Source: TPA_inf: Saccharomyces (Eukaryota). Taken from it: a DNA stretch of 64,000 nucleotides. This document shows, piece by piece, positions 12,187 to 16,002 of this stretch (position 1 is its first letter; each line of letters opens with the position of its first letter). The stretch is taken from positions 256,001-320,000 of the forward strand of contig BK006948.2 in the NCBI GenBank assembly GCA_000146045.2, written 5' to 3'. A model generated the notes under the pieces. That model was not told the DNA's origin, searched no databases, and saw only the letters and a list, made by a program, of their open reading frames with translations. The translations under genes were made by a program, and so were the position numbers.

Positions 12187-13641
12187 ATGTTACTACGTTC
12201 TCTTACAAGTGCCTTCGTTTTAAGTGCTGGTTTGGCTCAGGCTGCTAGCAGCAGTAACAGTTCCACACCATCCATTGAAATTAAAGGCAATGCATTTTTT
12301 AATTCGGAATCAGGTGAAAGGTTTTATATCCGTGGTGTTGATTACCAGCCTGGTGGTTCTTCTAACTTGACTGATCCCTTAGCAGACGCATCTGTCTGTG
12401 ACAGAGACGTCCCCGTTCTGAAAGATCTAGGGATAAATACTGTCAGAGTTTATACTGTGGATAACTCGCAAGATCATTCCCATTGTATGAAACTATTGCA
12501 GGAGAACGGTATATACTTGATCCTGGATGTCAATACCCCCACGAGTGCTATTTCTCGTTACGATCCAGCCTGCTCCTATAACGCTGACTACTTACAAAAT
12601 GTCTTTGCCACCATTGATACCTTTGCTGATTACGACAATGTTCTAGGTTTTTTCGCTGGTAACGAGGTCATCAATAGTGTTAATACTACCAACACTGCTA
12701 CTTATGTCAAGGCAGTGGTCAGGGACATGAAGAAATACATCAAGGCTAGAAAATACAGACAAATTCCGGTAGGTTACTCGGCTGCTGATATCGTCGCTAA
12801 CAGACAATTGGCTGCTGAATACTTTAACTGTGGTGATGAAGCTGACGCTAGAATCGACATGTTTGGTGTTAATGACTATTCTTGGTGTGGTGAATCTTCA
12901 TTTGTGGTATCGGGTTATTCCACCAAGATGAAGCTATATCAAGATTACTCCGTTCCTGTCTTCTTAAGTGAATTTGGTTGTAACCAAGTCAAGAGCTCTC
13001 GTCCATTCACAGAAATTGAAGCTATCTATTCCACTCAAATGTCTTCTGTATTCTCCGGTGGGCTAGTCTACGAATATTCCAATGAAACTAACAATTACGG
13101 GCTCGTTCAAATTGATGGTGACAAGGTCACTAAATTGACAGATTTTGAAAACTTGAAAAATGAATACAGCAAAGTATCCAACCCAGAAGGCAATGGTGGT
13201 TACAGTACTTCCAACAACTATTCTACATGTCCTGATTATGAAAAGGGTGTCTGGGAAGCTAATAACACTTTGCCTGCTATGCCAAGTGCTGCTTCTGCTT
13301 ACTTCACATCTGGAGCAGGTTCTCCTATGGGAACCGGAATCGCCACCCAACAAAGTTGTGATGCTAAGGACGATGACGACGAAGAAGACGACGACACCTC
13401 CTCTTCATCCTCTTCTTCCTCTTCATCTTCATCTTCCGCTTCTTCATCTTCTGAATCATCATCCTCGACTTCAAAGGCATCTTCCTCCTCCCCTTCTGCT
13501 AGCGAAACGAGCTTGCTAAAATCTGCCGCATCTGCTACTTCGTCCAGCCAATCGTCCTCGAAATCAAAGGGTGCTGCCGGAATTATTGAGATTCCTTTGA
13601 TATTCCGTGCTTTGGCAGAACTTTATAACTTGGTTTTATGA
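12187..13641 (+). CDS. GAS5: GAS5, GPI-anchored 1,3-beta-glucanosyltransferase (GH72), 484 aa
   Basis: Signal peptide, a GH72-like catalytic body, a C-terminal acidic run followed by a long poly-Ser tract, and a hydrophobic GPI signal tail. Confidence 0.9.
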   Translation: MLLRSLTSAFVLSAGLAQAASSSNSSTPSIEIKGNAFFNSESGERFYIRGVDYQPGGSSNLTDPLADASVCDRDVPVLKDLGINTVRVYTVDNSQDHSHCMKLLQENGIYLILDVNTPTSAISRYDPACSYNADYLQNVFATIDTFADYDNVLGFFAGNEVINSVNTTNTATYVKAVVRDMKKYIKARKYRQIPVGYSAADIVANRQLAAEYFNCGDEADARIDMFGVNDYSWCGESSFVVSGYSTKMKLYQDYSVPVFLSEFGCNQVKSSRPFTEIEAIYSTQMSSVFSGGLVYEYSNETNNYGLVQIDGDKVTKLTDFENLKNEYSKVSNPEGNGGYSTSNNYSTCPDYEKGVWEANNTLPAMPSAASAYFTSGAGSPMGTGIATQQSCDAKDDDDEEDDDTSSSSSSSSSSSSSASSSSESSSSTSKASSSSPSASETSLLKSAASATSSSQSSSKSKGAAGIIEIPLIFRALAELYNLVL

Positions 13642-13814: not shown

Positions 13815-14639
13815 TCATTCCAAGACGTTTTTGTCCATCTTATGTAATGCATCCTTGATGCTTTGCAATTCTACTTTCTGTCCACGAACGTGCAATCCAG
13901 ATGCAATGTTCTCTAACGCTGATGAGATCGAAGTTGAATCCTCAGGATTTAGTTGTTCTTGGATACTTTTATTTTTTTGCATATGTTGACGGATTTTTTG
14001 ATATGTGTAACTGATCGGCAGATACCTCTTTGCATCGGAAGCCGCATTCATTTGTGCATTCTTGCAGGAACATATTTCGGGTAGCTTGATTGAATTGTAA
14101 TTTACGTCAGTTTGTTGTTCATTTAGATCCGGTGACAACGCACTGTTGGAAGAGAAAGAGCTTGAACTACATTTATTCGAAAGTGATTGACAAAAATTCC
14201 TACTATGGGGGTCTGATCTACATTGCTTGCAGCTTCCAGGTATCCATGACCCATCCTCTTTAGTGATCGGTCTATTCTCGCTATCGTAGATTTCTTTGTC
14301 TCCACAGCATTTCGATATTGATTTCTTAGCATCGGATTCTATTTTCTTTTCTGAACAGCAAACGGGGACTAAGGATGGCATTATGTTATTCTTTTGGTTG
14401 CAACATGTTACTGGTTTCATGGCATCTTTATTCCTACAACATTTTATTTTTTTGTTGCCACTGCCTGCACATGCATTGATACTGCTGCTGCATGAAGACA
14501 GAGGTGAATTAATATGGCCATCAAGCGATGAATTCGTTGAACTAAACTGTCTGCCGCTCAGATATTGATAATCGTTGGCTATATCAATCTCAGACAAAGA
14601 CTGGTCTGTTAATACCGCGGGCACATGAGATGTTAACAA
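13815..14639 (-). pseudogene. YOL029C: Displaced C-terminal reading frame of YAP7, separated from the bZIP part by a frameshift; corresponds to the separately named YOL029C (ATG at 14420)
   Basis: This open frame begins at a TTG codon and overlaps the YAP7 stop region by 7 nt in another frame. It is Cys-rich and S/N-rich. The first ATG is at 14418-14420, giving a 201-aa product. Confidence 0.55.
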
Positions 14640-15370
14640 TGGGCCTTCAGCTTTCCTTTTTTTAAACTGACAGCGCCGATTGGTTTAAAGTTTTCTACCA
14701 TTTCTAATATCGAAATAGGATTGTCTGGCGGGTTTTCTGGCTGCTGTTGAAATGGAGTATTAACAATCAAAGGCAAGGCTTTTTGCAATTCGTTGTTTAA
14801 TGCTATTGATTTTTGCAAGTTTTCCTTTGTATCGGAAAACTCAGATTCCAGCAGTTTATATTTCCTTTGCCAATCATCGACCAAATTGTGTAGCATCTCA
14901 ACCTTCTCTTCCAGAACCTGGATTCTTGTTGTTCTGCGTTCCCTATATGCTCTTTGCGCATCTCTATTTTGCCTCCTTCGCTTTTCCACGCTATCGACAC
15001 CGTTTTCATCACCACTTCCGTTGCCTTCATCATCAGATTTCCCCTCATGACCTTTTGCGCCTTCGTTCTCATGATCTTTTGTGGTCATTTGGTCTTTCTG
15101 GTTGGAAGTTTGAACCTTCTTTATCTTGGACGATCCATCATTATTAGCTGATGCATCCCCGCGCTTGGATTTCGGTTTGCGGCCCGGTTTTAGGCGCTGT
15201 GGTAACTCCCAATTCTTGGATAACTTAATAGCTGACGGTCCTGATGTACTCACATTTCCATCTGGTGAGGATGGAGGTGGAGACGTCGTAGACATGGAAC
15301 CCTGTTTATGCCCCAATTTGAAGCCTTTGGGCTTTACGCTAACTGCTACTACAGACCTTCGTTGTCTCAT
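14633..15370 (-). CDS. YAP7: YAP7, bZIP (Yap family) transcription factor, truncated 245-aa allele
   Basis: bZIP basic region KRRRQNRDAQRAYRERRTTRIQVLEEKVEML. The ATG is at 15368-15370 and the stop TAA is at 14633-14635. The other frame stays open downstream, as described in the finding below. Confidence 0.8.
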   Translation of the reverse strand: MRQRRSVVAVSVKPKGFKLGHKQGSMSTTSPPPSSPDGNVSTSGPSAIKLSKNWELPQRLKPGRKPKSKRGDASANNDGSSKIKKVQTSNQKDQMTTKDHENEGAKGHEGKSDDEGNGSGDENGVDSVEKRRRQNRDAQRAYRERRTTRIQVLEEKVEMLHNLVDDWQRKYKLLESEFSDTKENLQKSIALNNELQKALPLIVNTPFQQQPENPPDNPISILEMVENFKPIGAVSLKKGKLKAHC

Positions 15371-16002
15371 GATCCATTGAAAGTGTGCGTAAATGACAAA
15401 ATTTTGTGCCTTTCTATATTCTTTAATTGATGATTTACTTCCTTGATAACGGCTCAACAAACGAAGAGCAATTTTCAAATTTCAAAAGAAAAAACCGTTG
15501 AAACTGTTCTTGAGCAACTTTCAAGCCTCTTATGATGATGTGCTACAGATTGAAGTACAGGTGAAAAGAGGAATAACCAATAGCCTTGTTTGCTTTCTAC
15601 GGTGGGGCAGCGGATTTTCTCTTTTATGCTTATGCTTCTTCTTCCATATATTACTAATTTTTCTCGAGCGAGCAGCTTTACTGCGTGCATTACCGATGAA
15701 AAAAATCGCCGATATATGAAAATCCAGCTCATAAGATGCTGATTAAGGAGTCATGAGTGAAAGGACCCTCGTGGCCATCACAAAAAAGACACTTTGCTCC
15801 TGTATAAAAAAAAAAATAAGGCGGTAGTTTAGATAGGGTGTCTATTATATACATGCATAATAATTTAGTTTTGAAGGGTCGCTGGTTTTGCCGTGACGTA
15901 CGCTTCTCTTTGATCTTTTGCCATTGTTGTCAGAGAAAAGAGAACCGATTGACTTTTTTTTTTTAGTTTTTTTTAGTTTTTTTCTTAGGCTTTGATCTAA
16001 TA

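Follow-up and report, generated by a model that had tools for sequence, protein, structure and literature searches.

The YAP7 gene (YOL028C), which encodes a basic leucine zipper (bZIP) protein, lies split between two overlapping reading frames on the minus strand of the 64,000-nucleotide (nt) stretch of Saccharomyces contig BK006948.2 analysed here (positions 256,001 to 320,000; this whole stretch is referred to as the window, and positions are given in its own numbering). The split is accounted for by a single adenine: intact S. cerevisiae alleles carry a run of eight adenines on the coding strand (A8) where the window carries seven (A7). We are highly confident that the window holds the known natural loss-of-function YAP7 allele of S288C, and comparisons of alleles, of orthologues and of selection revealed no evidence contradicting this reading. 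The YAP7 frameshift of laboratory yeast is already known and was published in 2015; the S288C form was reportedly described in that year by Merhej et al., in Mol Microbiol 96:951. The additions made here are the exact base (A8 to A7, 14663–14657), the presence of A7 in RM11-1a and EC1118, and an A7/A8 polymorphism on three backgrounds.

One A has been lost from the A8 run (TTA AAA AAA AGG, encoding L236-K-K-R239), most likely through replication slippage, and translation of the resulting A7 allele leaves the original frame after Lys238, reads seven foreign codons (GKLKAHC) and terminates at the stop at 14635–14633. The truncated Yap7 retains its Hap4-like motif and its bZIP domain and lacks the C-terminal 280 residues, which include the cysteine-rich region and the conserved C-terminal domain. 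According to the literature, such a protein would still bind DNA yet be unable to repress YHB1, the gene of the nitric oxide oxidoreductase. Repression of YHB1 by Yap7 was found in 'wild' strains with the full-length protein (PMC6545440, a review citing Merhej et al. 2015); the lost C-terminal part is described there as containing the domain that interacts with Tup1 and that repression requires, and the laboratory allele gives rise to a truncated protein that is unable to repress (PMC6545440). Earlier genome-wide studies used the frameshifted YAP7 background (PMC4860858).

The lost adenine and the reading frame it interrupts

The first minus-strand frame runs from the ATG at 15370–15368 to the TAA at 14635–14633 and comprises 245 codons, the open reading frame (ORF) caller placing its start further upstream, at a TTG at 15478. 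A TAA at 14687–14685 bounds the second frame on its upstream side; the frame is open from 14684 to the TGA at 13817–13815 and was called from the TTG at 14639–14637 (274 codons), so that the two called ORFs overlap by 7 nt (14633–14639). This layout agrees with that of an earlier reading of the letters alone (hereafter the original prediction), which had placed the ATG at 15370, the TAA at 14633–14635 and the TTG at 14639, with a 7-nt ORF overlap, and had estimated the stop at about 190 nt past the zipper; it lies 183 nt after the end of the bZIP_1 match (residue 184). That reading had also given the second frame as open from at least 14690, which is too far upstream, the true limit of 14684 being set by the TAA next to it. 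Two features define the site of the shift:

14636..14684, minus strand: stretch of 49 nt open in both frames according to three-frame translation, where a +1 or −2 indel at any position would join the frames
14657..14663, minus strand: A7 homopolymer, the frameshift site; A8 in intact S. cerevisiae alleles (TTA AAA AAA AGG = L K K R)

On the coding strand, the A7 run (14663–14657; T7 on the plus strand) is thus contained in the dual-open stretch and lies outside the 7 nt that the called ORFs share. The original prediction, in which the run was 'inside the overlap', holds in the first sense and fails in the second. Likewise, its proposal that a 1-nt change in the run joins the frames is right in one direction and does not extend to any 1-nt change, as entry into the downstream frame requires +1 nt (or −2 nt) in the window. 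Addition of one A gives a fused protein of 518 amino acids (aa), close to the approximately 500 aa predicted, that reads ...AVSLKKRKAEGPLLTSH... across the junction. The coding sequence in the window contains three A7 runs (at 14663, 14453 and 13978); an A7 run alone is therefore not rare, and proof of the slip site comes from the comparison of alleles and not from chance statistics.

Consistent with a slip at the homopolymer, which had been the central element of the original prediction, each of the 20 intact S. cerevisiae alleles that were fetched and could be read carries A8, against A7 in the window. The strain alignment of the run proposed with that prediction reveals the 1-nt difference in its simplest form in L011, a contig from a public read set, whose coding sequence is that of the window with one additional A in the run and no other difference. 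The flanks of L011 differ from those of the window at 17 positions in ~5 kb, which identifies L011 as a natural haplotype in its own right rather than an S288C sequence read wrongly. In the other intact alleles fetched A8 is likewise followed by GGAAAG, and in a 1.2%-divergent haplotype it is followed by GAAAAG. Comparison with the divergent alleles L001–L006 leaves an ambiguity, as a deletion in either A-run together with a substitution could be invoked (A8-G-A4 versus A7-GG-A3); the closer alleles L009–L016 resolve it, since they share GGAAAG with the window and the run is their sole local difference.

At the same L-K-K-R codons (window 14654–14665), outgroups show CTGAAAAAGAGG (L007, 2194–2223) and CTGAAGAAAAGG (L008, 2194–2223), in which the adenine runs are interrupted. 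These sequences indicate that the reading frame and its length are ancestral and that an A8 run without interruption is peculiar to S. cerevisiae. The interrupted runs of the outgroups further imply that synonymous changes made the slippage-prone run.

The conceptual A8 fusion already exists, residue for residue, as 'Yap7p [S. cerevisiae]' (PTN18219.1); together with the A8 alleles, this 518-aa protein bears out the statement in the original prediction that other strains carry a longer, intact YAP7. When a large protein collection was searched for relatives of the fusion, it yielded a 518-aa protein of S. cerevisiae with 98% identity; clustered at 90% identity, this protein falls in a group of 343 member sequences, full-length and truncated S. 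cerevisiae forms together. Single-frame orthologues of 515–522 aa are present in S. mikatae, S. kudriavzevii, S. uvarum, S. eubayanus and two further relatives, one of which is a Saccharomyces with 83% identity to the fused sequence, and more distant homologues are found in Maudiozyma, where the protein is named Yap7, and in Zygosaccharomyces. Conservation extends over the junction itself: L236-K-K-R-K240 is invariant in the Saccharomyces alignment and, in an alignment of 24 homologues across genera, the junction falls within the conserved motif NFKPMKAVxLKKRK. As had been claimed, the two frames are parts of a single gene, full-length orthologues being present both in further strains of S. 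cerevisiae and elsewhere in Saccharomyces. A stop shared by other strains or species, with an unconserved downstream frame, was looked for, and the opposite was found.

The composition of the run raises the alternative that the split is bridged in expression, either by programmed −1 ribosomal frameshifting or by transcriptional slippage on A_AAA_AAA, in which case the gene would be regulated and not broken. The 0 frame reads TTA AAA AAA G and contains a heptamer (A_AAA_AAA, 14663–14657) that fits the slippery pattern X_XXY_YYZ perfectly, and a −1 slip at this heptamer recreates exactly the ancestral ...SLKKRKAEG.... However, a stimulatory RNA structure is absent from the 97 nt downstream (14656–14560), where the minimum free energy of −17.9 kcal/mol is no better than that of shuffled sequences (mean −17.8 kcal/mol, z=−0.02, 200 shuffles), and the two-frame arrangement is unconserved, since in all other species, as in many strains of S. 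cerevisiae, a single frame covers the whole protein and the run is either A8 or interrupted. Bridged expression is also at odds with the report that the laboratory allele is truncated and repression-defective (PMC6545440). Because downstream structure is absent and the arrangement is unconserved, frameshifting is rejected as the main explanation, and we consider it very unlikely; slippage on the A7 run, whether transcriptional or ribosomal, may nevertheless produce traces of full-length Yap7.

The truncated protein and the displaced C-terminal half

The 245-aa product of the window is identical to 'Yap7p [Saccharomyces cerevisiae S288C]' and, by exact look-up, is found on 91 contigs. The 201-aa product encoded downstream is identical to 'uncharacterized protein YOL029C [S288C]' and is found in the same way on 105 contigs. 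Both identities agree with the reference annotation quoted in the original prediction (YAP7, 245 aa; YOL029C, 201 aa). The two halves of the gene comprise the following features:

14633..15370, minus strand: truncated YAP7 frame (YOL028C), 245 codons and TAA; residues 1–238 are native and residues 239–245 (GKLKAHC) are an out-of-frame tail
15173..15223, minus strand: Hap4-like CCAAT-binding-complex (CBC) interaction motif, residues 50–66; Pfam PF10297 Hap4_Hap_bind, E=3.3e-7, 30.6 bits, cutoff 21.1
14819..14986, minus strand: bZIP basic region and leucine zipper, residues 129–184; Pfam PF00170 bZIP_1, E=3.6e-7, 30.6 bits, cutoff 27.6
13815..14657, minus strand: displaced C-terminal 280 codons (residues 239–518) and TGA, untranslated as part of Yap7 in the A7 allele
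13815..14420, minus strand: YOL029C of the reference annotation, 201 aa from the first in-frame ATG (14420), equivalent to residues 318–518 of full-length Yap7
14190..14240, minus strand: conserved cysteine motif PGSCKQCRSDPHSRNFC, residues 378–394 of the full-length protein, with the pattern PGSCxxCxxDPxxxxFC
13818..14024, minus strand: conserved C-terminal domain, residues 450–518 (YLPISYTYQKIRQHM...IASGLHVRGQKVELQSIKDALHKMDKNVLE), from the Saccharomyces and 24-homologue alignments

The truncated product keeps the parts responsible for DNA binding and dimerisation, and the C-terminal 54% of the protein is lost; some 820 nt that were once coding follow its stop codon. Within the retained part, SKNWELPQRLKPGRKPK of the Hap4-like motif is invariant in the Saccharomyces alignment, and QNRDAQRAYRER of the bZIP domain, a Yap-type basic region, is invariant in the 24 homologues. 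Codon 2 of YAP7 in the window (15365) encodes Arg (AGA); it encodes Ser (AGT) in L001–L006, and residue 2 is either Ser or Gly in the remaining Saccharomyces species.

The displaced half has a distinct composition, residues 239–518 containing 16 Cys, 46 Ser and 22 Asn, compared with no Cys in the N-terminal half. Among the 24 homologues, which represent several genera, C384 is invariant, conservation reaches 90% or more at P378, G379, S380, C381, D387, F393 and C394, and the last 22 residues of full-length Yap7 are almost invariant in Saccharomyces. Precomputed Pfam annotation assigns PF28364 'YOL029C_N' both to full-length proteins and to the 201-aa fragment. The original prediction had interpreted the lost region as the redox and nuclear export signal (NES) regulatory domain usual in Yap proteins and had suggested a search of the fused protein for a Yap-type cysteine-rich domain. 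A Pfam scan of the fused 518-aa protein gives no match to the PAP1-type C-terminal domain at E≤1, and alignment places the region, through its motifs, in the HapX/Yap5 lineage to which Yap7 belongs. The idea that the lost region is a redox/NES domain of Yap1 type was accordingly discarded.

Ratios of nonsynonymous to synonymous substitution rates (dN/dS), calculated on the repaired window, are similarly low in both halves of the gene: 0.17 against L007 and 0.12 against S. mikatae for residues 239–518, and 0.17 and 0.22, respectively, for the N-terminal part. The 79 codons that separate the frameshift from the YOL029C ATG (residues 239–317) lie outside every annotated S288C ORF and give values of 0.16 against L007 and 0.14 against S. 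mikatae. Judging from these ratios, the downstream frame is under purifying selection.

That YOL028C and YOL029C are truly separate genes, the downstream ORF having a function of its own in this lineage, would accord with the two ORFs of the reference annotation and with a downstream frame that is still fully open in all A7 alleles examined. In all relatives, however, the downstream frame is the C-terminal half of one protein, including the 79 codons that precede the YOL029C ATG. Moreover, A7 and A8 alleles are as close as one base, and the open downstream frame therefore reflects the recency of the mutation. Two separate genes are thus highly improbable: YOL029C is the displaced 3′ half of YAP7, the remnant of a split gene, and no independent gene.

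On one side YAP7 is flanked by a gene for a 484-aa GH72 glucanosyltransferase (12187–13641; GH72 Pfam match on the orthologue) and a SIL1-domain gene, and on the other by a LETM1-domain gene and a TOM13-domain gene; these flanking genes agree in all fetched loci. Elsewhere in the window, ARAGORN detects a tRNA-Gly(GCC) at 26164–26234 on the plus strand and, on the same strand, a tRNA-Tyr(GTA) at 32191–32281 that, with 91 nt, is long enough for an intron.

Spread of the A7 allele and further truncations

A7 is also found in the vineyard strain RM11-1a (GCA_000149365.1), the wine strain EC1118 (GCA_000218975.1), three ScRAP-type assemblies and one ENA contig, and the allele is thus not specific to laboratory strains. 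Both products are identical to the S288C proteins; the frameshift alone, being shared with RM11-1a and EC1118, is no marker of the S288C-like origin that the original prediction had derived from the truncation. The same distribution bears on the accuracy of the run. Homopolymers are typical error sites, and Ns and surplus bases occur in another A-run of the low-quality FostersO assembly (L027). Against the view that A7 was wrongly sequenced or assembled in the window, A7 recurs in all the independent assemblies just listed, the 91 contigs with the exact 245-aa product come from many sources, and the YAP7 frameshift has been studied experimentally (PMC6545440, PMC4860858); the probability that A7 is an artefact is negligible.

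A7 and A8 each occur on three near-identical haplotype backgrounds (L009–L012, L017–L020 and L025–L027 versus the window). The run forms all four gametes with the single-nucleotide polymorphism (SNP) at 14972 and with that at 14070, and the two SNPs form three gametes with each other, a pattern that points to slippage having recurred at the run, or to reversion. Gene conversion may be an alternative source of the four-gamete pattern, and the alleles sampled are few and were not drawn at random.

Loss of the C terminus of Yap7 is not confined to A7. A second, independent truncating allele, Q440*, results from a C>T change (CAA to TAA) at a position equivalent to 14054 on the minus strand and is carried by L021–L024. 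It resides on an A8, in-frame haplotype, gives a 439-aa product that lacks the conserved C-terminal 79 residues, and is recorded on 23 contigs, one of them a metagenome scaffold. P0037 (450 aa, strain code CCN) is an S. cerevisiae YAP7 model that ends early, with ...SDAKRK, near residue 449, and may represent a further truncating allele. Loss of repression leads to higher expression of YHB1, and deletion of YAP7 has been reported to confer resistance to nitric oxide. It is conceivable, though doubtful, that the A8 run is a recurrent mutation hotspot and that loss of the Yap7 C terminus has been repeatedly favoured in S. cerevisiae; against repeatedly favoured loss, several null alleles are equally well explained by relaxed constraint.

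Other irregularities occur at the locus. EC1118 (L020) has an additional 1-nt gap at ~14823, within the bZIP part, and no 245-aa gene is called there; this gap may reflect either a genuine further lesion or faulty assembly. The 312-aa Yap7p deposited for FostersO (L027, GCA_000326005.1) ends with ...GNKKNKML, implying an extra A in the run at 14447–14453. A second homopolymer frameshift in this strain was rejected, as the assembly contains Ns and several extra bases and the locus, when translated, does not yield the deposited protein; the extra A is probably an assembly error. Yap7p models of 481 aa (P0043 and P0046) were likewise rejected as an isoform, since they skip 37 residues over the frameshift (...ISILEM|IDIANDY...) by means of an invented intron and are annotation artefacts.

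Results on Yap7 obtained in S288C-derived strains concern a truncated, repression-defective protein, and this applies to genome-wide binding maps, to deletion phenotypes and to the 'uncharacterised ORF' YOL029C. The field is already aware that Yap7 of S288C is truncated, and the additions made here leave that picture unchanged. Knowledge of the exact base, of A7 in wine and vineyard strains and of the other truncations may help in the design of allele swaps or of quantitative trait locus crosses involving RM11-1a, EC1118 and S288C.

Comparison with known systems

The closest counterpart of the window is the S288C YAP7 frameshift allele itself (PMC6545440, PMC4860858), with which it shares the gene, the strain background and the consequence, and from which it differs in nothing material. 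With the programmed −1 sites (for example, A_AAA_AAG of dnaX), YAP7 has in common an in-frame slippery heptamer at which a −1 shift restores the product, here the ancestral Yap7. Unlike these sites, it has no downstream structure, its split is unconserved and its allele is reported to be non-functional. The cysteine-rich domains of Yap1/Yap2 type, which contain a nuclear export signal (PAP1), resemble the lost half of Yap7 in being cysteine-containing C-terminal regulatory regions of AP-1-like bZIP factors. They differ from it in that the PAP1 match is absent in Yap7, whose conserved motifs are of HapX/Yap5/Yap7 type.

The members of the HapX/Yap5/Yap7 lineage have a common architecture that consists of an N-terminal Hap4-like CBC-binding motif, a bZIP domain, a cysteine-rich middle and a conserved C terminus, the last of which is conserved and functionally essential in HapX (PMC4232046). 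In HapX and Yap5 the CRR-B motif CGFCX5CXC, a [2Fe-2S]-sensing region, is also essential (PMC4232046). In the 24-homologue alignment this motif is present in homologues of Zygosaccharomyces type and in others outside Saccharomyces, whereas at the aligned position (columns ~465–480, window ~14560–14600) it is absent from all Saccharomyces Yap7 proteins, which have SLSEIDIANDYQY there instead. The absence of CRR-B represents a loss by one lineage of the family and is no argument against orthology. Yap7 has been reported to have shifted to constitutive, Tup1-dependent repression (PMC6545440), a mode of regulation with which the loss of CRR-B in Saccharomyces Yap7 is consistent.

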